Made by a program: the position numbers and the translations under genes. A stretch of DNA of 64,000 nt. Origin: a virus. Taxonomy: Duplodnaviria > Heunggongvirae > Uroviricota > Caudoviricetes. The DNA lies in IMG/VR virus record IMGVR_UViG_2795385694_000001; one strand, given 5' to 3'. Of the stretch, positions 7,081 through 18,638 are shown one piece after another. Each line of letters begins with the position of its first letter. Within the stretch, counting starts at the first letter, position 1. The notes under the pieces were generated by a model, which was not told where the DNA came from, did not search any database, and worked only from the letters and a program-made list of their open reading frames with translations.

Positions 7081-8481
7081 GTGACTATGCGAGCTGCCGT
7101 CTACCTGCGCCAATCAATGGATAGAGAAGGTGATGGTCTAGCCGTCGAACGTCAGCGCGAAGACTGCCTGAGGATCTGCCGTGAGCGCGGCTGGGAACCC
7201 ACTCAGTACGTCGACAACGACACTAGCGCCAGCAAGGGCCGTCGACCGTCGTATGAGCGCATGCTCGCTGATATACGCAGTGGACGCATCGACGCCGTAG
7301 TGGTGTGGGATCTTGACCGCCTGCATCGCCAGCCCAAAGAGCTCGAGCAGTTCATTGAGTTGGCCGACGAGAAGCGGCTAGCCCTAGCCACTGTAGGCGG
7401 GGATGCCGATCTCTCCACCGATAACGGTCGGCTGTTCGCGCGCATCAAAGGCGCGGTGGCCAGGGCTGAGGTGGAGCGGAAGTCGGCAAGGCAGAAGCGC
7501 GCATTTCTCCAGATGGCCCAATCTGGTAAAGGCTGGGGCCCCCGCGCATTCGGATACAACGGTGACCATGACAAGCCGAAGATTGTCCTCAAGGAAGCTG
7601 AGGCCCTGAGGCGTGGCTACAAGATGCTCCTGTCGGGCGAAACCCTCTATTCAGTTGCAAAACACTGGAATGACGCTGGTCTGAAGACTCCCCGAGGGAA
7701 CCTGTTCAACGGAACCACGGTGCGCCGGATTCTTCAGAACCCACGCTACGCAGCTGTCCGCACCTACCACGATGAAGTCGTGGGCGAGGGTAAGTGGCCT
7801 GCGATCATTGACGAGACCACCTGGCAGGCTGTGAATGCCCTCCTTAGCGACCCATCACGCCATCAGCCGCGCCAGGTTCGTAAGTACGTCCTCGGCGGCC
7901 TACTCACCTGCAGCGAGTGTGGCCACAAGATGTCTGTGGGCGTACAGCACCGGAAAGAGGGGAATGTCCCCATCTACCGGTGCAAGCACGTCAGCTGCGG
8001 CAAGGTCACCCGACGTGTTGAGCGTATGGATGAATGGGTGAGGGAGATTGTCCTGCGCAGAATGTCGAGTCGGCATTGGGTTCCCGGCAATCAGGACAAC
8101 CGGGAAAGAGCCCTCCAGCTGCGTGAGGAGCTAGACACAATCAAGCAGCGAATGAGATCCCTCGCAATTGATTTCGCTGACGGAGAACTCACCGCAAGCC
8201 AGATGCGTATCGCTAATGAGCGCATGCGGGCGAAGCTTGATGACGTTGAGGACAAGCTGCGTCGAACCAATGTGCGCCCGATCCCCGATGGGATTCTCAC
8301 CGCGAATGACCGTGGCAAGTTTTACGACGACGAGATGTCTCTGGATGCGAAACGAGCCCTCATCGAGGCCTTATGCAACTCGATTGTCGTGCATCCCCTC
8401 AACCTCAAGGGCCGCAGTGCTTCCCAGGCTCCGCTCGGGCATAACATCGACGTCCACTGGCACAAGCCCAGTAATGGCTGA
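7081..8481 (+). CDS. int: large serine recombinase (serine integrase)
   Basis: N-terminal resolvase domain MRAAVYLRQS...VVVWDLDRLHR; zinc-ribbon CSECGHKM...CKHVSCGK; C-terminal coiled coil; 466 aa; the start may instead be ATG 7087. Confidence 0.9.
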   Translation: MTMRAAVYLRQSMDREGDGLAVERQREDCLRICRERGWEPTQYVDNDTSASKGRRPSYERMLADIRSGRIDAVVVWDLDRLHRQPKELEQFIELADEKRLALATVGGDADLSTDNGRLFARIKGAVARAEVERKSARQKRAFLQMAQSGKGWGPRAFGYNGDHDKPKIVLKEAEALRRGYKMLLSGETLYSVAKHWNDAGLKTPRGNLFNGTTVRRILQNPRYAAVRTYHDEVVGEGKWPAIIDETTWQAVNALLSDPSRHQPRQVRKYVLGGLLTCSECGHKMSVGVQHRKEGNVPIYRCKHVSCGKVTRRVERMDEWVREIVLRRMSSRHWVPGNQDNRERALQLREELDTIKQRMRSLAIDFADGELTASQMRIANERMRAKLDDVEDKLRRTNVRPIPDGILTANDRGKFYDDEMSLDAKRALIEALCNSIVVHPLNLKGRSASQAPLGHNIDVHWHKPSNG

Positions 8482-10113: not shown

Positions 10114-11153
10114 TCGATCACCTCAGTGAATGGCCCGAATCGCTCTTCGAGCAGACCCATGGAGCGCAAGGTGTACCACTCCTCGTCCCCAACCTTCGAC
10201 TTCCATGAACCTGAGACGAACTTGTACCGACGCCCTATTCGGCCATCTACAGGACTCCACACCGTTCCGTCTCTAGCCTCTTCACAATCCAGGCTCGGAA
10301 GTACACGGGGCTCAAGGATTTCGGTGTAGGGGGCATATGTGGGAGACGGGTTGCCGACAGCCCAAATGTCAGGACATTCGCGCCAGCGCCAGCCGTTCTG
10401 GTACTTCCATTCATCCCCGTCACGGTCCCGCCACCGCGATCCCTGCTCGTCTACCCCTAGACGGTCAACGACACGGGGTTTACGTCCGGTGGCGTCTTTG
10501 AATTTGACCCTCTGTTGATGGTCTGCCACGAAGTCGATTGCCGGTTCCTGTTGTGCCGTAACGTCAAAGTCAACCGAACTTTGACTTTCGTTGGACTTTC
10601 CCGGTTCCTGTTGTGCTGTTGGGTCGATTCGCTTGACCGGCCTGAACTGCTCAATGAACCGCTCGACAGGATCGTTGGCGCTGGACCATTCCCCGATCTC
10701 GTTCACCGAGGAACAGGTGTACAGGATTCGGTTTACGGTCTCTTCCCAATAGTCACGCTCCCGGAGCGCGCTATCTTCCGCCTTATCGAGGCGATCGATC
10801 TCCGCGTGTAGTTCATCGAGCGTCTTCCCTGTCGGGTCGTAGATGACAGGCCAAGAGTCTGCGTCGTCCGCATCGGTAGGTTCTTCTGCGAACAACTCCG
10901 AGTCGTACAGTGGCTTGTAGCTCCAATGGGGCGAGCCCCAGAATTTGTCTCGGTCGCCTTGGACCCGGATGGCTACAGCCTCCCCGTCTGGTCGTCGTGC
11001 GATGGTGCCAACAGGCGCACCCTCGGGGACGCTGTTAGCGGCAGCGATCATTGCGTCTACCTCGTAGAGGCCGATCACTTCATCGACATTGAACGATAGG
11101 TAGTCAGCCATCGCTTTCCTCTGCGCTTCAGACGGATTCAACACGTTCACCAA
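10110..11153 (-). CDS. hypothetical protein with internal TAQQEP repeat and a C-terminal SLDCxEARDGTVW domain
   Basis: ORF track; the C-terminal ~60 aa are paralogous to the C-terminus of the 37110..37577 product. Confidence 0.55.
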   Translation of the reverse strand: MVNVLNPSEAQRKAMADYLSFNVDEVIGLYEVDAMIAAANSVPEGAPVGTIARRPDGEAVAIRVQGDRDKFWGSPHWSYKPLYDSELFAEEPTDADDADSWPVIYDPTGKTLDELHAEIDRLDKAEDSALRERDYWEETVNRILYTCSSVNEIGEWSSANDPVERFIEQFRPVKRIDPTAQQEPGKSNESQSSVDFDVTAQQEPAIDFVADHQQRVKFKDATGRKPRVVDRLGVDEQGSRWRDRDGDEWKYQNGWRWRECPDIWAVGNPSPTYAPYTEILEPRVLPSLDCEEARDGTVWSPVDGRIGRRYKFVSGSWKSKVGDEEWYTLRSMGLLEERFGPFTEVIE

Positions 11154-11833
11154 CCAAACTCCTTTGGTACATAGACTTGGTTCTGCGGTCGGATGAAGTC
11201 CGAATCCGCTGGCGGTTGGTCAGATTCTGTGATGCGAATCAGCAGACGCCATCCACGTTCAGTAGCCTGCGACGCCTGGTGGATGTTCCACCAATCCCAT
11301 GAGTGCCAAACAGCCTCTTGCGCGACCAATTTCCGCAGGGTCGTGCAACCATCAATCCGGCGAGTTAATTCTGAGTAGAGCTGTTCGCCTTCGTCGTGCT
11401 TAATCGGCAGGTGCAGTAATCCATCAATGAACACAGTCGGGCAGTCGTTTCCAACGTGCAGCGTGTGGTAGCGCGGGTAATAGCCCTCAAGGGAACGGTA
11501 ATTCTGCAGCGGAAGGGACGGCGTGCCCCAATTCGCTGGGGTCACGGTCTCGTCTGCAGCGCTGTAGCGCGGCACACCATCGGTATGCCACCCGGGAATC
11601 GCAGGCCACCAACCAGGCATCAGCATAGAGACCTTAGTGTCCACGAAGATGTGCTTGTGGTCCCCCACAATTGGGGCTGACTGCAGGAGTCCGCGCAAGA
11701 GTGGACCTCCATAGAGCACAGCATTCGGCAGGCTCGCGCGGCGCAGGTTCGGTGTCCCCTCGATTAGCGCGTGGTCGGATTCCGCTCTGGGCCCGATCAC
11801 CACAGGGTTGCGGTTAAACCAGTAGGCGGTCAT
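11147..11833 (-). CDS. putative Fe(II)/2-oxoglutarate-dependent oxygenase (PhyH-like WHTD...H motif)
   Basis: GWHTDG then YHTLHVG motifs; start chosen at MTAYWF with ATGA overlap to Pth2. Confidence 0.4.
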   Translation of the reverse strand: MTAYWFNRNPVVIGPRAESDHALIEGTPNLRRASLPNAVLYGGPLLRGLLQSAPIVGDHKHIFVDTKVSMLMPGWWPAIPGWHTDGVPRYSAADETVTPANWGTPSLPLQNYRSLEGYYPRYHTLHVGNDCPTVFIDGLLHLPIKHDEGEQLYSELTRRIDGCTTLRKLVAQEAVWHSWDWWNIHQASQATERGWRLLIRITESDQPPADSDFIRPQNQVYVPKEFGW

Positions 11834-12183
11834 AGCAGTTTCAGCTCCCCTGTAATCGGCGCGAGTTCGTCGGCGGTCGCTGGGCCAATGGCACAACAGG
11901 TAGTTGTGAGCACGCCGTGGAACTCAGTCTGTCCGTTGTCGGTAATCAAAGAGTTCGGGATCCCGGCCTTAATTGCCTTATCCCACAGCTCAATCAGCGC
12001 ATCTTCACTCTCGACACGTACACATACCTTGGTGAAACTCCCCTGCAGCCACTCTTCAACGCGCGGATCCGAGAGGTATTCGAGCGTCGCAGCCAGCGAT
12101 GCATGTGCGCCCTGTGCGACCATCTTGCCTGCGCGCATACCAAGGTCTTTGCGCATGACGATCATTTGCTTCAGCTCACTCAT
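11830..12183 (-). CDS. pth2: peptidyl-tRNA hydrolase, PTH2 family
   Basis: KQMIVMRKDLGMRAGKMVAQGAHASL ... ITDNGQTEF...CAIGPATADELAPITGELKLL aligns along its length to archaeal/eukaryotic Pth2 (PTRH2). Confidence 0.85.
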   Translation of the reverse strand: MSELKQMIVMRKDLGMRAGKMVAQGAHASLAATLEYLSDPRVEEWLQGSFTKVCVRVESEDALIELWDKAIKAGIPNSLITDNGQTEFHGVLTTTCCAIGPATADELAPITGELKLL

Positions 12184-12299
12184 CGCCGTTCACTTCTCCC
12201 ATGGTCTGAGCGCCGTCATAGACGGTCACCGGGTCGTAGTCGCATGCCGAATCGCGGTACCCCTTGCCTGGGATCACCGGGTACTTCTCAAACCAGAAC

Positions 12300-12812
12300 T
12301 CACCGTGCAAGAGCGCACGGTCCAGTGTGTGGGTCGACGTGGTAACTGGCTGGTGGTGAACATAGCGGGCCGCTGTAGCCGAAATTGGTAACCGAGATCC
12401 CCGCGCGTTCTGCTCGCTTCATGCAATCCCAGGTACCGCGTGAATCCTTCAACGGGAAGGCGATACACGTATCGGCACCACGGTCGACCATCTCCTGGTT
12501 TCGCAGGTGCCCAGCGACCGGGCAATAGCGAGTACCGTTCTTCCACCGAACGGCATGAGTGCAGTGCTGGTCGCAGTCTCGGTACCAGTCCGCAGGAACG
12601 CCCTCGTTCATTACCGGAAGGCCCTTAGCCATCGCTTCGTCGGCCCACTGCGATGCGAACAGGTCAGCACCGCTCGGGCACTCCCCCTGCACCACAACGA
12701 GATCGCCCTGGCCGCGCTTCCCTGCAATCGCAAGCTGGGCATTCAGAGCGGAACGTACGAACTTACGGGACGGCCAGGCCCGACTACCTGTAACCAGAAC
12801 GCGGCGCGTCAT
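12300..12812 (-). CDS. SLOG/DUF2493 (YspA-like) protein; apparent frameshift near the 3' end
   Basis: VLVTGSRAW...VVQGECPSGADLFASQWA...PADW motifs; a coding-like frame continues to 12184. Confidence 0.6.
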   Translation of the reverse strand: MTRRVLVTGSRAWPSRKFVRSALNAQLAIAGKRGQGDLVVVQGECPSGADLFASQWADEAMAKGLPVMNEGVPADWYRDCDQHCTHAVRWKNGTRYCPVAGHLRNQEMVDRGADTCIAFPLKDSRGTWDCMKRAERAGISVTNFGYSGPLCSPPASYHVDPHTGPCALAR

Positions 12813-12979
12813 AGCAAGGCACCCACAACCGTCACCAATAGGCCGATCACCGCAACGACCATCGCAACCGGCAATAGTGTCAGCGGCAGGTCATAGACCA
12901 AACCCATGACGCACATTCCTGACGGAACCCCCACGAGTACGCCCGACCAGTATGGAACGAGAGGGTTCAATGCCCCCAC
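12809..12979 (-). CDS. small two-TM membrane protein
   Basis: Hydrophobic C-terminal half of the 12809..13219 ORF; GTG or ATG internal start; ATGA overlap with the downstream gene. Confidence 0.3.
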   Translation of the reverse strand: MGALNPLVPYWSGVLVGVPSGMCVMGLVYDLPLTLLPVAMVVAVIGLLVTVVGALL

Positions 12980-13073
12980 CTCAGCTCCATCAACACCGGG
13001 AAGATTAGGACCAGGATGACCACGAGCCCACCCATCGCCAGTGACACGTACCAAGCCCAATCGTCCAGGCGCT

Positions 13074-13373
13074 TCATAGCTTCTCCAGCTTGTAGGTTGA
13101 AAGAACTTTCCGGATCGCGCCTGGATAAGTCCACCCCTGTCCGGCCTCCTCTTCCACGGCGGCAATGAAGGCCTTCTCGACAGCCTCCTGCTCCTCAAGT
13201 GCCTGGTAAGTCTCAGCACGCTCTCCGAGCCATAGCGCGACCTCTCGGATTCGGTCCGTGCCTGGACTAGATGGGCCGGAAGAAATCCCGCGCCATATAA
13301 TGTCGCGCGCGAACAAAATCATTTCCGGCGTGACAGTCGGAATCCTCTCGAAGTCATAGGGATTCGATGTCAT
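13074..13373 (-). CDS. hypothetical protein
   Basis: ORF track; ATG 13373. Confidence 0.5.
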   Translation of the reverse strand: MTSNPYDFERIPTVTPEMILFARDIIWRGISSGPSSPGTDRIREVALWLGERAETYQALEEQEAVEKAFIAAVEEEAGQGWTYPGAIRKVLSTYKLEKL

Positions 13374-13484
13374 GCCTGACGCTCCATCTTGATGTTCTCA
13401 ATCAACTCCGCTACCGACGCTACGAAGTCAACCACGCTCAGGGCGACGATTGTGATGCTCAAGTACTTTCTGAATTCCTTCATA
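13372..13484 (-). CDS. 36-aa hydrophobic peptide
   Basis: MKEFRKYLSITIVALSVVDF...; preceded by an 11-aa leader ORF that starts in the ACCCACATGAACC motif. Confidence 0.25.
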
Positions 13485-13560
13485 TACCAATGCTATTGAG
13501 CGATTCGGGGTTCATGTGGGTACGAAAAATGCCCCCAGCTTTCGCTGAGGGCTCTTCGAG

Positions 13561-13631
13561 TAGTCCATGCGGGAATCAAACCCGCACCAACACCTTGAGA
13601 GGGTGGTGTGCTCTCACTACACCAATGGACC
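13561..13631 (-). tRNA. tRNA-Glu (anticodon CTC)
   Basis: Hand-folded cloverleaf: acceptor GGTCCAT/ATGGACT, T-arm GCGGG-TTTGATT-CCCGC, anticodon loop CTCTCAA. Confidence 0.6.
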
Positions 13632-13637
13632 TTAGGG

Positions 13638-13976
13638 CTATTGCTCAACCCACTTGCCGGATTCACGAACCTCTGTCTTGAGGTTAACCGGCCACATATC
13701 ACGCTCCACTTGGGCACGTTGTAGGTCTTCGCGGCCCACCTGACGTTTCACCCATAGCTGGAACTTTGGTGAGCTCACCATGCGCCTGAACGCGGCCTGC
13801 TTGTTCTGCAGCTGGCTACGCTCCTCGCGCGACTCACCCACCGCGCCAGAAGGCTCATGCGTAATCCGCACGCCCGTCTCGCGCTTGTTCTGGTTTTGAC
13901 CGCCTTTGCCCCCAGATCGGAATGTGTCCACACGACAATCCGAGAGGGTGACAGACAGTACCCGTTCTCTACTCAC
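13638..13976 (-). CDS. arfB: ArfB-like peptidyl-tRNA hydrolase (class I release-factor GGQ domain protein)
   Basis: FRSGGKGGQNQNKRETGVRITHEPSG ... ESREERSQLQNKQAAFRRM matches the GGQ catalytic domain of ArfB/ICT1 and RF1. Confidence 0.8.
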   Translation of the reverse strand: MSRERVLSVTLSDCRVDTFRSGGKGGQNQNKRETGVRITHEPSGAVGESREERSQLQNKQAAFRRMVSSPKFQLWVKRQVGREDLQRAQVERDMWPVNLKTEVRESGKWVEQ

Positions 13977-13977
13977 G

Positions 13978-14051
13978 TCAAGTCGACCGGATTTGAACCG
14001 GCGTCCCCCGCCGTGACAGGGCGGTGCTTTAGACCTCTAAGCTACGACTCG
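13978..14051 (-). tRNA. tRNA-Asp (GTC)
   Basis: Acceptor CGAGTCG/CGACTTG, D-stem GCTT/AAGC, anticodon arm CCGCC-CTGTCAC-GGCGG, T-arm GCCGG-TTCAAAT-CCGGT. Confidence 0.7.
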
Positions 14052-14302
14052 AAAGAACGTTTGCCCCCAGTGGTTTTCGAGGCCACTGGGGCAGGTACGA
14101 ACAACCTGAGCCAACTTTCTGGGAATCAAACCCTGGAGCTGCTTGGCCAAAACTCCCGTGGAGACGGTGCGAATTGAACGCGACCACACCAATCTTGCAA
14201 GGATCGGTCGCCACCTTGGAACATGCGCCCCCAAGGCCCCCGTTTTGACAAGACTGGGTCTGAACTTGGACGGTTACCTCAACGGAGCCGACAACCCTGT
14301 AG

Positions 14303-14376
14303 GGCCTCATCGAGGTCTCGAACCCCGCGCCTCTTCGTTACTAAGGAAGTGCTCTAGCCAGATGAGCTAATGAGGC
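14303..14376 (-). tRNA. tRNA, anticodon AGT (Thr?), with a C.C mismatch closing the anticodon stem
   Basis: Acceptor GCCTCAT/ATGAGGC, D-arm GCTC..GAGC, T-arm CGGGG-TTCGAGA-CCTCG. Confidence 0.55.
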
Positions 14377-14425
14377 CTGGTGCATAGGCGTTTTGAACAG
14401 GTGCCCTTGCAAGTGGCCTGTGGCG

Positions 14426-14493
14426 TACCCAGTCGAGGAATCGAACCCCGCTTGGCTGGATGTAAGCCAGCTTTCGTCCCAGACTAACCAGGC
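14426..14493 (-). tRNA. tRNA-Val (TAC), short D-arm
   Basis: Anticodon arm GCTGG-CTTACAT-CCAGC, T-arm CGGGG-TTCGATT-CCTCG, acceptor with G.U pairs; 68 nt. Confidence 0.5.
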
Positions 14494-14498
14494 ATGAG

Positions 14499-14573
14499 AA
14501 CGAGTGACCAGATTCGAACTGGCACGACCTGTTTGGAAGACAGGGATGCTAAACCGTTAAACATCACACTCGC
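14499..14573 (-). tRNA. tRNA-Gly (TCC)
   Basis: Acceptor GCGAGTG/CACTCGT, D-stem GATG/CATC, anticodon arm CCTGT-CTTCCAA-ACAGG, T-loop TTCGAAT. Confidence 0.7.
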
Positions 14574-14577
14574 ATGG

Positions 14578-14644
14578 AGCGGCAGAGGTGACTCGAACAC
14601 CCTTGCAGCGGCTTAGGAGGCCACGCACTTTCCGGAACTACCGC
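14578..14644 (-). tRNA. tRNA-Arg (CCT)?, degenerate D-arm
   Basis: Acceptor GCGGTAG/CTGCCGC, anticodon arm GTGGC-CTCCTAA-GCCGC, T-arm GGGTG-TTCGAGT-CACCT; only 67 nt. Confidence 0.45.
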
Positions 14645-14649
14645 TTGGT

Positions 14650-14719
14650 AGGTTCGCACAGAATTGAACTGTGATTGCCGACGTATCAGATCGGTGTCCT
14701 TACCGTTGGACGACGAACC
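14650..14719 (-). tRNA. tRNA-Ile (GAT)
   Basis: D-stem GTCC/GGAC, anticodon arm CCGAT-CTGATAC-GTCGG, T-arm CACAG-TTCAATT-CTGTG. Confidence 0.6.
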
Positions 14720-14721
14720 AG

Positions 14722-14793
14722 TGGGTCTGGTAGGACTCGAACCTACGTCTCCGACTTAAGAGGACGGAGCTAAACCATCTCAGCTACAAACCC
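14722..14793 (-). tRNA. tRNA-Lys (CTT)
   Basis: Acceptor GGGTTTG/CAGACCC, D-stem AGCT/AGCT, anticodon loop CTCTTAA, T-arm GTAGG-TTCGAGT-CCTAC. Confidence 0.65.
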
Positions 14794-14801
14794 ATTGTTG
14801 G

Positions 14802-14873
14802 TAGGGCGCAAGGGATTCGAACCCTCAACACGCGAGGTAAAAGCTCGGGGTGATTCCGTTTCACCAACGCCCA
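14802..14873 (-). tRNA. tRNA-Lys (TTT)
   Basis: D-stem GTGA/TCAC, anticodon arm CCGAG-CTTTTAC-CTCG, T-arm GAGGG-TTCGAAT-CCCTT. Confidence 0.6.
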
Positions 14874-14876
14874 ATA

Positions 14877-15047
14877 TCAATTCATTGCCGGAAACGCCTC
14901 CCACACATGCGGATAAGCAGCGCGGTATGCGTCGCGACTGGAGCGTGTAAGAATTGTCGTCGGCTTACACCCGACAACCACCAGCCCTTCCCTGCTCACC
15001 CTCTCCACCGCGAGCTCAGGAGTCATCCTCCTGCCGTACACAAACAT
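14877..15047 (-). CDS. small hypothetical protein embedded in the tRNA array
   Basis: The ORF 14877..15113 was trimmed to the first ATG that does not overlap the tRNA at 15085..15159; moderately GC3-rich. Confidence 0.3.
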   Translation of the reverse strand: MFVYGRRMTPELAVERVSREGLVVVGCKPTTILTRSSRDAYRAAYPHVWEAFPAMN

Positions 15048-15084
15048 CGTGCCGGTGGTCGTCTCGACATCGAATACTTTCACG

Positions 15085-15159
15085 TAGTCGGCGCGAGGAT
15101 CGAACTCGCACACACCGAGGTTTGAACTCGGCGGCTTTGCCAGGTTTGCCTAGCCGACC
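15085..15159 (-). tRNA. tRNA with anticodon CAA (Leu-type) but class I (short variable arm)
   Basis: Acceptor GGTCGGC/GCCGACT, anticodon arm CCGAG-TTCAAAC-CTCGG, T-arm GCGAG-TTCGATC-CTCGC. Confidence 0.5.
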
Positions 15160-15217
15160 ATGCTCAGCATTTAACCGACCCGAGGCGGTCGGCACCCGTG
15201 AGGGCTGTTTGAACCGG

Positions 15218-15291
15218 TACTCCAAGAGGGATTCGAACCCACAACCTCCAGGGTCTAAGCCTGTCGCCTCTGCCAGTTGGGCTATTGGAGC
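15218..15291 (-). tRNA. tRNA with anticodon TAG (reads CUA; Leu-type) but class I structure
   Basis: Acceptor GCTCCAA/TTGGAGT, anticodon loop CTTAGAC, T-arm GTGGG-TTCGAAT-CCCTC. Confidence 0.5.
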
Positions 15292-15348
15292 TTGGTGCCG
15301 ATATTGCCGCGTCGGCTTTACGGTGACTCCTACTCACCGAGCGCGTCG

Positions 15349-15420
15349 AGACGAGGGCCGGGATCGAACCGGCGTGGGTCAGGGTTGCAGCCTGCCAGCT
15401 AGCCACTCACTCACTTCGCC
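15349..15420 (-). tRNA. tRNA-Cys (GCA)?, D-arm unclear
   Basis: T-arm GCCGG-TTCGATC-CCGGC is perfect; anticodon arm CAGG-CTGCAAC-CCTG; acceptor has one A.C mismatch. Confidence 0.45.
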
Positions 15421-15428
15421 CTAAGCCG

Positions 15429-15593
15429 CTATTCTGCGGCGGGTGCTGCCTTCTTCGCGGGGGCCTTCTTGGCTACCGGCTTCTCTTCCACTGCGTAGTG
15501 GAAGTCCTCAAGGGCATCCATACGATCAATCAGGTCGTTTACCGCCTTGACGATGTCGATATGGGCGATGCCCGTGCGCAGCTTGTCAGTCAT
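15429..15593 (-). CDS. 54-aa protein with Lys/Ala-rich tail (MTDKLRTGIAHIDIVKAV...)
   Basis: ATG with AAAGG RBS at 6-nt spacing; lies between tRNAs; below the track cutoff. Confidence 0.4.
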   Translation of the reverse strand: MTDKLRTGIAHIDIVKAVNDLIDRMDALEDFHYAVEEKPVAKKAPAKKAAPAAE

Positions 15594-15616
15594 ATTGGCC
15601 TTTCGGTGTCTGTACG

Positions 15617-15687
15617 TCCCCGTGCGCGGAGTTGAACCGCGATAACCTCGGTCACAGCGAGGGGCTCTGCCATTGAGCTACACAAGG
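15617..15687 (-). tRNA. tRNA-His (GTG)
   Basis: Classic D-arm TAGCTCAATGGCAGAGC, anticodon arm CCTCG-CTGTGAC-CGAGG, T-arm CGCGG-TTCAACT-CCGCG. Confidence 0.7.
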
Positions 15688-15751
15688 TATGGCGCTGGCC
15701 AGAGCAGCATGGCATCTCTGTTCCTTCGGGCTTTGTACCGGCAGCGCTCAG

Positions 15752-15826
15752 ACCCGTTGACAGGATTCGAACCTGCATGCGTTGCGCCTTCGTAGGGCGG
15801 TGGGCGCTCCATTGCCCAACAACGGG
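15752..15826 (-). tRNA. tRNA-Arg (ACG)
   Basis: Acceptor CCCGTTG/CAACGGG, D-stem GGGC/GCCC, anticodon loop CTACGAA, T-arm GCAGG-TTCGAAT-CCTGT. Confidence 0.7.
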
Positions 15827-15905
15827 ATAGCCCGACTCTTTAACCTTCTCCGTGGGTTTCGGGACCAGACTAATTCTCCTGGGAGGTGCTGGCGAGCGGA
15901 CCCTG

Positions 15906-15980
15906 TGGCGGGTACCGGATTTGAACCGGTGGTCTCAAGGTTATGAGCCTTGCGAGATGGCCGAGCTTCTCTAACCCGCT
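15906..15980 (-). tRNA. tRNA-Met (CAT) (initiator, elongator or Ile-lysidine type not resolved)
   Basis: Anticodon arm CAAGG-CTCATAA-CCTTG is perfect; T-arm ACCGG-TTCAAAT-CCGGT. Confidence 0.65.
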
Positions 15981-16105
15981 ATGTATGGTGACTCATTCCG
16001 GCAGGACAGTTCGTCGCCTACCGTATCCGCGCGAGTCAACGCGACCTTTTACGTGGAGTGCCCAGCTTTTCACCAGTAGCTGTGGAACCTGGTTTCCCTT
16101 ACACG

Positions 16106-16179
16106 CCGACTCTCCCCGAATCGAACGGGGGCGCACCGGGCTTCAACCGGTCGCTCTTACCTAACTGAGCTAAGAGTCG
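16106..16179 (-). tRNA. tRNA-Phe (GAA)
   Basis: D-arm TAGCTCAGTTAGGTAAGAGC, anticodon arm ACCGG-TTGAAGC-CCGGT, T-arm CCCCG-TTCGATT-CGGGG, acceptor CGACTCT/AGAGTCG. Confidence 0.75.
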
Positions 16180-16473
16180 ATTGTTAGAGGCTGAGAGTAC
16201 ACCCGCTATCGAGAACCTTTCGCAGCATTATGGATTCGCTGCTTCTCCAGGCCATCCCTGACCTAGTTCTCACGCCTGGTCCGTTACCGTGAACCACTCG
16301 TTATGCCGAAAGCTACTCTGCGGCTTTCCCTTCGCGATGAGATGGCCGTCTCACTGCTGCAGTACTTGCCTACAAACCGCACTCACCTTGCGGGACTATT
16401 GTGCGGCCCAGATTCCCGAGGGTCTGGGATTAAGGCGCTTTTGCTCCTCGGCAGGGGAAGGACTTTTGCTTTT

Positions 16474-16545
16474 TATTGACGACGGGACTTGAACCCGCAC
16501 ATCCAGTTTCCAATAACTGGTGACCTACCGTTGGTCTACGCCATT
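16474..16545 (-). tRNA. tRNA with a non-standard 8-nt (or 6-nt) anticodon loop; identity unresolved
   Basis: D-arm GACC-AACGGTA-GGTC, T-arm GCGGG-TTCAAGT-CCCGT; anticodon region CCAGT-TATTGGAA-ACTGG. Confidence 0.45.
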
Positions 16546-16999
16546 CTCGCAGCGGAGAATGATTTGACTAGAGACGTGCTTCCCCATGAAGTTCCGAACC
16601 CTTTTGGGGCACAGAATGCTTCACGCCTCTCGTGCTTTCGCCTGGCGGGGCTAATTACACTCTCTCTCAACCGCATTGCGAGCCGTCGCCCGACGCGAGA
16701 TCAATCATGGAACACGCCCTTGCTTGCGAAGCTCGGACTCAGTTCCTTCCGCTCCACAGGGCGCTTGTTCGATAGCCTTTTCACACGCACGTACGTGATG
16801 GTGTCCTCAGCACTTTGCCGTTGGACGGGGCGTAACTCGCAACCTGGCAGCCATCTCTGACTGCTCAAGGATTGGATTGCATGGATTGCCCTTGCGGGTG
16901 GTGGGTTGTCACCCCACCTTTCACCACCTTGCGGTGGCTTATGGGCCATGCCCCGAATATCTTAACTATATCTCCCACAACGGAGTTCGTGTGGGTGAG

Positions 17000-17082
17000 C
17001 GGAGAGGCAGGTATTCGAAACCTACTGCGAACAGCGCTCCGGTTAGCAACCGGGCCTAGTCACCTAACTAGTTGCGCTCTCC
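17000..17082 (-). tRNA. tRNA-Ser (GCT), class II
   Basis: Acceptor GGAGAGC/CCTCTCC, anticodon loop TTGCTAA, variable stem-loop GCG-CTGTT-CGC, T-arm TAGGT-TTCGAAT-ACCTG. Confidence 0.6.
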
Positions 17083-17161
17083 ATGGTCCACCATTTCAGC
17101 ACCGACGCGATCTTCAGTGCACCTGTTCAGCCACCATTCAGGCAGGTGGAAGTCTTTAGAG

Positions 17162-17246
17162 CGGAAAGTCGAGGAATCGAACCCCCAGGACGCACTGCCT
17201 GCCCCGGTATTCGACGCCGGTTGCCGACCATTCAGCGGGACCTTCC
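17162..17246 (-). tRNA. tRNA-Ser (CGA), class II
   Basis: Acceptor GGAAGGT/ACTTTCC, anticodon loop GTCGAAT, long variable arm GCAGG..CCTG. Confidence 0.55.
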
Positions 17247-17328
17247 ATCGCCCCAGAATTCATGACGCAGCCTGGCGCACACTGCGGACAGCCAACTCAT
17301 GGCAGGTACCTACCGGTTGACCCAAATG

Positions 17329-17401
17329 CTGATGACCCTGGATTCGAACCAAGACCTACGTGGTTCAGAGCCACGTGTGCTGCCGGTTACACCAATCATC
17401 A
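17329..17401 (-). tRNA. tRNA-Gln (CTG)
   Basis: D-arm GTG-TAACCGGCAG-CAC, anticodon arm CGTGG-CTCTGAA-CCACG is perfect, T-arm CTTGG-TTCGAAT-CCAGG. Confidence 0.7.
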
Positions 17402-17480
17402 ATGCTGAGACTGGCCTTGCGGGCGGGGGAACGTTTCTGCTTGCCGCAAGCCTTCAGTTCGTTCCACACCAGTCTCATTG

Positions 17481-17557
17481 TCTCGCCGTCAGGAGTCGAA
17501 CCTGCACACCCGAAGGAGCAGATTTACAGTCTGCGTTGATCGCCTATTCGCGACGAG
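17481..17557 (-). tRNA. tRNA-Tyr (GTA)
   Basis: Anticodon arm GCAGA-CTGTAAA-TCTGC is perfect; extended variable region; T-arm GCAGG-TTCGACT-CCTG. Confidence 0.6.
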
Positions 17558-17609
17558 ATTGGAGCCAGTGCTCGGCTTCTCGCCGATTCGCATGCACACA
17601 CTGACATGG

Positions 17610-17682
17610 CTGGCTTGGAAGGATTCGAACCTACACCTCGCGAGTTAACAGCTCGCTGCTCTACCAATTGAGCTACAGGCCA
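17610..17682 (-). tRNA. tRNA-Asn (GTT)
   Basis: D-arm TAGCTCAATTGGTAGAGC, anticodon arm GCGAG-CTGTTAA-CTCGC, T-arm GTAGG-TTCGAAT-CCTTC. Confidence 0.7.
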
Positions 17683-17801
17683 AGAGCGAGGGTCGCCAGT
17701 GTCAGCGCGCTTTCCGACCTGTGCGACCCTCTTGCCCGTCCTGCTTAGAGATGAGACGGAGCCGAAAACACCCGTACGGTCATCATACGTGATGACCAAC
17801 G

Positions 17802-17876
17802 TCTGCCAGGCGCGATTTGAACACGCGATCTCCTGGACCCAAACCAGGCGGGATGGCCAAACTTCCCTACAAGCAG
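17802..17876 (-). tRNA. tRNA-Pro (TGG)
   Basis: Anticodon arm CCTGG-TTTGGGT-CCAGG is perfect; T-arm GCGTG-TTCAAAT-CGCGC. Confidence 0.6.
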
Positions 17877-18156
17877 ATGATGGACGACACGGCCCAGGTA
17901 CGGCACCTCAGGTCGGATCCTTTTTATCGGAACCTACTGCGGGATTACCCTGCCATCCATATGGCCACCGGCATCCCGATGGTCGCGCGGAGATGTCTCT
18001 CCACATTCCCCGTACGACCGACGCTTTCCTGGAGCTACCTGTACTTGCGCATGTGGTCTGACAGCCGGGGCCACACTGACTAACGAGGATGTTCTCCCTT
18101 TGCACTACCGGCAGCCTACGCCGCCAGTCGGGGCTCGAACCCGAATCTTCCTCTCG

Positions 18157-18510
18157 TGGAGCTGCCCGGAATTGAACCGGGATGTTACGTGACTTGTCAC
18201 AGTCTTCTACGTGCGTAGTCCACCGATTGGGTCGGTTGGGGTGGACGCCTGTCCGAATCGAGACCTCAGACTCTCGACCGATCTTCCAGCACAGTTTGTC
18301 GCCTGAGAGCTGGTCATTGCGAGTTCCCCGTATTCGCGACGGTGGATTGGTACACGGAACGGGTAAACCGTGGTACCCCACCGGACTACGCAGCTAGGGC
18401 GTAGTCGGACTGAGCAGAAGCTGCAGTTATTGTGGTTGCACTGTTACGGGCGTTGCGGGCCCGGCACGCTTCTCAGTAAGTTGACACGCAATCGAATACC
18501 TGTCAGCCCC
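18157..18510 (-). ncRNA. ssrA: tmRNA (ssrA), one-piece, mycobacterial type
   Basis: 5' GGGGCTGACAGG...GAAGCGTGCCGG...GCAACCACAATAACT then tag reading frame GCA GCT TCT GCT CAG TCC GAC TAC GCC CTA GCT GCG TAG (AASAQSDYALAA), 3' CCCGGTTCAATTCCGGGCAGCTCCA; this parallels the M. tuberculosis ssrA layout (tag ADSHQRDYALAA, as recalled). Confidence 0.85.
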
Positions 18511-18567
18511 ATTGAAGTATCTATATCTCTATGGAATTTTCAAATGTCATGCCACACAGAGGCATTG

Positions 18568-18638
18568 CACGGGCGGAGAGAATCGAACTCCCACTAACGG
18601 GTTTGGAATCCGTTGTCCTACCTTTGGACCACGCCCAT
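18568..18638 (-). tRNA. tRNA-Trp (CCA)
   Basis: D-stem GTCC/GGAC, anticodon loop TTCCAAA, T-arm GGGAG-TTCGATT-CTCTC. Confidence 0.6.

Follow-up and report, generated by a model that had tools for sequence, protein, structure and literature searches.

A Pth2-type peptidyl-tRNA hydrolase gene beside the tRNA array of a cluster MabI Mycobacterium abscessus prophage

The 64,000-nt viral sequence of IMG/VR record IMGVR_UViG_2795385694_000001 (hereafter the window, meaning the full stretch, to whose positions all coordinates refer) lies inside a Mycobacterium abscessus prophage and carries on its minus strand a gene for a peptidyl-tRNA hydrolase of the Pth2 family. An earlier note, made from the sequence alone, had described the product as an archaeal/eukaryotic-type enzyme borne by a phage next to an array of transfer RNA (tRNA) genes, and had suggested that it recycles peptidyl-tRNAs or the phage's own tRNAs, perhaps countering host toxins that trap peptidyl-tRNA.

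11830..12183, minus strand: Pth2-family peptidyl-tRNA hydrolase gene, 117 amino acids (aa), ATG to TGA with the stop codon inside the coordinates

Family, fold and prophage setting of the Pth2 gene

The hidden Markov model search proposed in the earlier note, using Pfam PF01981 (PTH2), matched the 117-aa product across profile positions 1–115 of 115 with an expectation value (E) of 5.1e-32 and 110.9 bits (gathering cutoff 23), and the product also passed NCBIfam TIGR00283 'arch_pth2' with 98.1 bits against a cutoff of 82. Searching PDB sequences with phmmer returned Pth2 chains as the sole matches, with Methanocaldococcus jannaschii 2zv3 as the best (E 4.5e-23), Pyrococcus horikoshii 1wn2 at E 3.8e-19, and further matches to S. 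solfataricus 1xty, T. acidophilum 1rlk, human Bit1 1q7s, A. fulgidus 1rzw/3erj and 24bt; E values ranged from about 1e-12 to 1e-23, with 24bt weaker. The latter, a 127-aa chain named 'peptidyl-tRNA hydrolase', was considered as a solved phage or bacterial Pth2 and rejected as only a distant match (E 8e-9 and 1e-7); it was not among the fold-search matches and no associated paper was found. Similarity to Pth1 was looked for in Pfam, NCBIfam, the PDB sequence search and the fold search without a match. The motifs on which the earlier note relied are present as K5xxIVxRxDLxMxxGKxxAQxxHA28, D82xGxTE87 and I110TGELKLL117, although its 'GIGP' actually reads AIGP (98–101).

The Pth2 gene is real and under purifying selection: in the minus-strand frame dN/dS (the ratio of nonsynonymous to synonymous substitution rates) amounts to 0.04–0.14 against close relatives, and protein identity of 85–86% persists where nucleotide identity is 73%. 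No comparable support was found for the overlapping plus-strand open reading frames (ORFs) at 11771..12391 and 11917..12345.

An AlphaFold2 model of the monomer, calculated from alignment A2 (46 sequences, the window protein and 45 homologues taken from databases), consists of 4 strands and 4 helices and has a mean predicted local distance difference test (pLDDT) score of 95.9 and a predicted template modelling (pTM) score of 0.89. Foldseek comparison with the PDB gave template modelling (TM) scores of 0.86–0.90 and root-mean-square deviations of 1.6–2.5 Å to 2zv3, 1wn2, 1q7s, 1xty, 1rlk and 3erj, and the best match outside Pth2 had an E value of 0.27. Structure prediction, which the earlier note had named as a possible means of showing the protein to be unrelated, thus yielded a model that superposes on Pth2 structures. 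The product is a full-length single domain with nothing added, in the alpha/beta fold of about 115–120 residues typical for Pth2, whose four-stranded sheet has helices on its flanks. No variation occurs at K20, Q24, H27, D82, G84 and T86, either within the 46-sequence alignment or after addition of three archaeal crystal-structure sequences. K20 aligns with S. solfataricus K18 and D82 with S. solfataricus D86, which are reported to be the catalytic residues defined by mutation (Fromant et al. 2005). Sequence profiles, fold and conserved residues all agree on the PTH2 assignment, and by family the product is a Pth2-type peptidyl-tRNA hydrolase.

Comparison with archaeal Pth2 (M. jannaschii MJ0051 2ZV3, P. 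horikoshii 1WN2, S. solfataricus 1XTY) revealed the same length, TM scores of 0.88–0.90 and 39–46% identity, with the conserved Lys and Asp in both. The phage/bacterial clade differs from the archaeal proteins by a one-residue insertion (FHGVxT vs LEPGT), and while Pth2 is the sole housekeeping enzyme in archaea, in the window it is an accessory gene beside the Pth1 of the host. Bacterial Pth1 catalyses the same reaction, has the same role in recycling tRNA from dropped-off peptidyl-tRNA and also detoxifies TacT products, but is unrelated to Pth2 in sequence and fold and acts as a monomer rather than a dimer. The literature likewise describes the two enzymes as sharing neither sequence nor structure while catalysing an identical reaction (PMC11994314, PMC11202043), with Pth2 acting as a homodimer (PMC11994314).

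When aligned, window positions 460–25000 are 95% identical to Mycobacterium phage prophiT49-2 (OQ417962) and 94% identical to prophi86-1 (MW584160), both M. abscessus prophages of about 80 kb (Vilmaviridae/Mclasvirinae). Alignment to prophages of this kind extends over the whole window, and G+C content is uniform across it at 55–60%. The whole window is inside a prophage of cluster MabI, whose members are organised like cluster M mycobacteriophages (PMC8092301, PMC9934374). Prophi86-1 gp143 (QSM02395.1) and prophiT49-2 gp139, both annotated 'peptidyl tRNA hydrolase', are 98% and 96% identical to the window protein and occupy the same place, after a SLOG-domain gene and a 44-aa ORF and downstream of an array of tRNA, transfer-messenger RNA (tmRNA) and RF-1 genes, so that effectively the same gene is present in all three. 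Relative to prophi86-1, the window is without the RtcB ligase and gene 144 and has an extra tRNA-Tyr. The novelty implied by the earlier note does not hold: both the observation and its interpretation were already known, since the gene carries the same annotation in the near-identical MW584160 and OQ417962 and the same reasoning has been published (PMC7824862, PMC5966550). Our additions are the statistics of its linkage to tRNA arrays, its status as an accessory cassette and the local anatomy of the block of tRNA, tmRNA and GGQ-protein genes.

The tRNA array and its linkage to Pth2 across phages

The array that the earlier note had placed next to the gene was delimited with ARAGORN, and contains a gene for a stand-alone GGQ-domain protein; a scan with a hairpin consensus gave a candidate site at its end.

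13560..18638, minus strand (as Pth2): 21 genes for tRNAs and one for a tmRNA (tag peptide AASAQSDYALAA); the same array is annotated in prophi86-1
13638..13976, minus strand: stand-alone RF-1/GGQ-domain protein, 112 aa, PF00472 E 1.1e-18, motif SGGKGGQ
13531..13552, minus strand: hairpin of 9 pairs (7 G-C) followed by a T run (ATTTTT)

Read from 18638, the array begins with tRNA-Trp and the tmRNA, continues with 20 further tRNA genes and ends 1.4 kb upstream of Pth2 on the same strand; it contains neither tRNA-Ser nor tRNA-Ala. The adjacency of a phage-borne Pth2 to a tRNA array is thus borne out. The hairpin lies directly after the last tRNA gene (tRNA-Glu) and might terminate transcription, or mark a point of transcript processing, between the array and the Pth2 operon; the evidence for this is weak, as the scan found no more such sites overall than in shuffled controls. 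A promoter scan was likewise uninformative, since shuffled sequence gave counts at least as high. In one tRNA (16474–16545, minus strand) the anticodon loop is abnormal, with 6 or 8 nt (CCAGT-TATTGGAA-ACTGG), and ARAGORN reports the 2-base anticodon 'tg' for it; the near-identical gene of prophi86-1 is annotated tRNA-Gln(ttg), and the window tRNA could be frameshift-prone or a non-standard decoder.

The gene for the GGQ protein sits between tRNA-Asp and tRNA-Glu, and its product, annotated in prophi86-1 as 'RF-1 peptide chain release factor', has no codon-recognition domains; its PDB matches are domain 3 of RF1/RF2 and, more weakly, RF-H. The protein is probably an on-ribosome peptidyl-tRNA hydrolase and could be a rescue factor resembling ArfB/ICT1 or PrfH. 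Its C-terminal half has no obvious basic tail, and in relatives an RtcB ligase gene lies about 0.5 kb downstream, an arrangement that recalls the bacterial RtcB-PrfH pairing. Like Pth2, GGQ hydrolases of the ArfB/ICT1/PrfH type hydrolyse peptidyl-tRNA in ribosome rescue, but they have another fold and act on the ribosome rather than on released peptidyl-tRNA, and they describe this neighbouring gene, 1.5 kb upstream, and not Pth2 itself.

By tblastn, Pth2 is present in 39 GenBank phage records, among them the mycobacteriophages Myrna (gp36, 'putative peptidyl tRNA hydrolase'), Phabba, Baka (gp70), Pound, Sandalphon (gp80) and WXIN, Sinorhizobium phages of the phiM12 type, the jumbo phages Atu_ph07, XacN1, Xoo-sp13 and RsoM2USA, and others. 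Searches with two narrow peptide patterns found Pth2 in at least 426 IMG/VR contigs and at 413 loci in GTDB species genomes, the latter chiefly chromosomal genes of Kofleriaceae/Haliangiales (Myxococcota), Chitinophaga and Planctomycetes. About 1,400 protein clusters match in a large protein collection, the nearest being named 'aminoacyl-tRNA hydrolase [Mycobacteroides abscessus / chelonae]' by NCBI. The label 'archaeal/eukaryotic-type' therefore fits the family historically but not its present range, and a phage Pth2 is no oddity because the family is widespread in bacteria and phages. Lateral transfer is reported to have brought Pth2 to some bacteria (PMC4929431, citing Powers et al. 2005), and the three bacterial groups named above may be a reservoir for the phage gene or recipients from phages. 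In these groups Pth2 is a common chromosomal gene (loci L083–L161), whose product was observed to share 50–59% identity with the phage protein and which has no tRNA linkage.

Linkage was quantified with ARAGORN within 10 kb on either side of Pth2 at the 80 best viral loci (1,497 kb) and the 80 best bacterial-genome loci (1,249 kb). The viral loci hold 664 tRNA or tmRNA genes, 92% of them on the Pth2 strand; at least one such gene occurs at 51 of the 80 loci, at least four at 43 and at least ten at 29, although these counts ignore phylogeny, some viral loci are near-duplicates and similarity to the query determined how the loci were ranked. Many viral loci have a tRNA at less than 500 bp from Pth2, and a tmRNA is present in 8 of the 80. 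The bacterial-genome loci contain 39 tRNAs in total, and just 3 of the 80 have four or more, one of these being a Mycobacterium prophage of the same kind as the window. This difference (43/80 viral vs 3/80 bacterial loci) indicates that tRNA linkage is a property of phage Pth2 and not of Pth2 genes generally, and lends statistical support across phages to the functional link with phage tRNAs that had been suggested. For comparison, tRNA arrays were reported in only 102 of 4,312 mycobacteriophage genomes (PMC5966550).

Jumbo phages (Iyer et al. 2021) and other mycobacteriophages encode Pth2 proteins of this family with 40–65% identity, whose genes are often embedded in tRNA arrays and have been interpreted in print in the same way; Myrna and Phabba (L018, L020), however, have no tRNA within 10 kb of the gene, and the window element is an 80-kb temperate prophage of siphovirus type rather than a jumbo or lytic phage. 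Within the lineage of the window the gene is not constant. In prophiGD54-2, another MabI prophage, the homologue of the 44-aa ORF runs straight into the gene that follows Pth2 in the window, with no Pth2 between them, and the cluster M phage Rey has a tRNA array, tmRNA and RtcB but no Pth2. Because of its absence from both, Pth2 is an accessory cassette in a conserved operon.

The Pth2 operon and its neighbours

The genes flanking Pth2 were assigned as follows.

12300..12812, minus strand: SLOG/YAcAr-domain protein, PF10686 E 2.5e-10, phrog_289, tblastn 72% identity to gp141
12176..12310, minus strand: 44-aa ORF, homologue of prophi86-1 gene 142, tblastn 95% identity to gp142
11147..11833, minus strand: downstream gene, 228 aa, phrog_1843 (function unknown), E 7e-72
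7081..8481, plus strand: convergent serine integrase, after the minus-strand gene run

In ATGAGTGA the Pth2 start overlaps with the stop codon of the 44-aa ORF, suggesting that the two are translationally coupled, and the ATG of the phrog_1843 gene overlaps the Pth2 stop in ATGA (11830–11833); stop/start overlaps on both sides of Pth2 indicate one translationally coupled operon. A family search with the 44-aa ORF gave no match, and the phrog_1843 protein had none in Pfam or among PDB sequences; a WHTDG motif was noted in the latter, which is annotated 'oxidoreductase' in prophiT49-2. Its homologue in prophiGD54-2 (gene 130) occurs without Pth2. Beyond it follow a homologue of gp146, a calcineurin-like phosphoesterase with the annotation 'MRE11' and two further ORFs, and small ORFs fill the interval between the hairpin and the SLOG gene. 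In related prophages the SLOG/YAcAr protein is called 'DprA-like DNA processing chain A', which may be an over-call, since the SLOG nucleotide-binding domain alone matches.

No tblastn match to the RtcB-like RNA ligase was found anywhere in the window; the ligase is present in prophi86-1, prophiT49-2, prophiGD54-2 and Rey. At the corresponding position (window 12813–13560 vs 10143–11375 of locus L001) just remnants of two small membrane-protein ORFs were observed. A fixed module of Pth2, RtcB, RF-1 and SLOG was considered and rejected, as a phmmer search over the 160 loci found these neighbours joining Pth2 only within the MabI lineage; the same holds for phrog_1843. Likewise, PADLOC models gave no match to any of six operon proteins, which speaks against a relationship of the operon to defence systems, the scope of this library being defence systems and not anti-defence genes.

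Proposed role of the phage Pth2

Several elements of the present case have precedents. Morgado & Vicente 2018 (PMC5966550) described RF-1, Pth (PTH2-like) and tmRNA genes in the tRNA arrays of mycobacteria and mycobacteriophages and suggested that they serve as extra rescue factors, Iyer, Anantharaman, Krishnan, Burroughs & Aravind 2021 (PMC7824862) reported that phages carry archaeo-eukaryotic PTH2 and not host-type Pth1 and tied it to ribosome rescue after tRNA cleavage, and the XacN1 paper lists Pth2 among translation genes. Dedrick et al. wrote of 'translational reprogramming during lytic growth' with regard to array, tmRNA and release factor, and placed the corresponding block of prophiGD54-2 among early lytic genes; by analogy, the gene run containing Pth2 is predicted to lie in a genome part with early lytic expression in the related prophages.

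We consider it likely that the window encodes a genuine and active Pth2 peptidyl-tRNA hydrolase, which as an accessory gene of a MabI temperate phage aids tRNA recycling. What we observe of the gene is its family, its fold, its conserved residues, the purifying selection on it and its linkage to tRNA arrays; its enzymatic activity, the timing of its expression and its benefit to the phage we infer. As expected from the family, the enzyme would bind peptidyl-tRNA (or N-acyl-aminoacyl-tRNA) after its departure from the ribosome and cleave the peptidyl-A76 ester to give back free tRNA, so that under heavy or damaged translation the tRNAs of phage and host would not stay trapped in the form of peptidyl-tRNA. 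The work may be divided such that stalled ribosomes are released by the tmRNA and the GGQ protein, while Pth2 works off the ribosome. On the most economical reading, Pth2 would, together with the tRNA array, support the intense phage translation of lytic growth.

Several observations weigh against this proposal. The host has its own Pth1, which leaves the need for a second enzyme unexplained. The gene is dispensable in its lineage, where prophiGD54-2 and Rey keep tRNA array and tmRNA without it; 29 of the 80 viral Pth2 loci have no tRNA at all within 10 kb, and in the window the candidate terminator hairpin separates the array from the Pth2 operon. The product scores 109.5 bits against the archaeal equivalog NF003314 (PRK04322), under its cutoff of 126, so it is not an orthodox archaeal orthologue, although still a member of the PTH2 family. 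Finally, our literature search turned up no phage Pth2 that had been tested biochemically or genetically.

The same chemistry could alternatively serve counter-defence, with Pth2 undoing the effect of host or prophage toxins that block tRNAs, a purpose which we regard as possible but distinctly less probable. Either the enzyme would deacylate N-acetyl-aminoacyl-tRNAs produced by GCN5-related N-acetyltransferase (GNAT) toxins of the TacT/AtaT type, or it would clear peptidyl-tRNA or fragments after anticodon nucleases or mRNA interferases have stalled ribosomes, in partnership with phage tRNAs that resist nucleases, with the tmRNA and GGQ protein and, in relatives, with the RtcB ligase. Acetylation of glycyl-tRNA by TacT is reversed by Pth in M. 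tuberculosis, Iyer et al. class phage PTH2 with RNA-repair counter-measures, and the tRNA arrays of mycobacteriophages have been interpreted as a means of countering VapC-type tRNases (PMC10264068), a view whose prediction is matched by an array without tRNA-Ser as in the window. RtcB adjoins the same operon in relatives, and the patchy accessory distribution of Pth2 is typical for conflict genes. However, none of this is direct evidence, RtcB is missing from the window, and phage Pth2 outside the MabI lineage does not generally have RtcB and RF-1 beside it. The absence of PADLOC matches also counts against counter-defence, though with a library of that scope, and plain translational support explains the tRNA linkage equally well. 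Both purposes use the same chemistry and are not separable by the present evidence, and countering toxins, as the earlier note had suggested, is among two or three purposes that this chemistry would permit equally. A broader version holds that phage Pth2 is no spare housekeeping enzyme but a dedicated part of a mobile translation-protection module that defeats the tRNA-disabling immunity of hosts or rival prophages, which we put forward tentatively and at longish odds. Such a module, in a composition that is just as doubtful, would have tRNA arrays at its core and tmRNA, GGQ hydrolase or RtcB as variable parts, and would be directed against GNAT toxins, tRNases and modifiers of the acceptor end. 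If true, this would explain why Pth2 travels with tRNA arrays in phages and not in bacterial chromosomes.

Two further explanations fare much worse. Non-Watson-Crick pairs at position 1:72 were found in 8 of the 21 window tRNAs, comprising 5 G:U pairs, 2 pyrimidine-pyrimidine pairs in Ile(gat) and Lys(ttt), both with an encoded CCA end, and 1 A.C pair in Met(cat). The resistance of initiator tRNA to Pth1 has been ascribed to its unpaired 1:72 nucleotides (PMC3488237), and host Pth1 might thus handle phage tRNAs with weak or mismatched pairs poorly, hence Pth2. We regard this as very unlikely and the role of weak 1:72 pairs as unsupported, given that Rey and prophiGD54-2 share such pairs but have no Pth2, and that several Pth2-linked arrays (L021, L037) are Watson-Crick throughout at 1:72. 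Moreover, the bacterial control is too small to give a baseline, and the indifference of Pth2 to the 1:72 pair is an assumption from archaeal enzymology. Slimmer still is the chance that the gene encodes a Pth2-fold protein with a non-enzymatic or other role, such as Bit1-like signalling or binding, or is a decaying passenger. Human Pth2 (Bit1) does have a second, non-catalytic role and the gene is dispensable in sister phages, but the window protein keeps every residue that is invariant in the family, the proposed catalytic Lys and Asp among them, is under strong purifying selection and is a full-length single domain without additions.

Phage Pth2 thus occurs in hundreds of phages with a strong tie to tRNA arrays and has apparently never been tested by experiment, and the residual interest of the present case lies in the reason why phage tRNA arrays are accompanied by a second peptidyl-tRNA hydrolase that is unrelated to the first. 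Natural variation within cluster MabI, in which the window, prophi86-1 and prophiT49-2 carry Pth2 and prophiGD54-2 does not, could tell general support of translation from the countering of tRNA-directed immunity, a question that is relevant to the choice and engineering of therapeutic mycobacteriophages.

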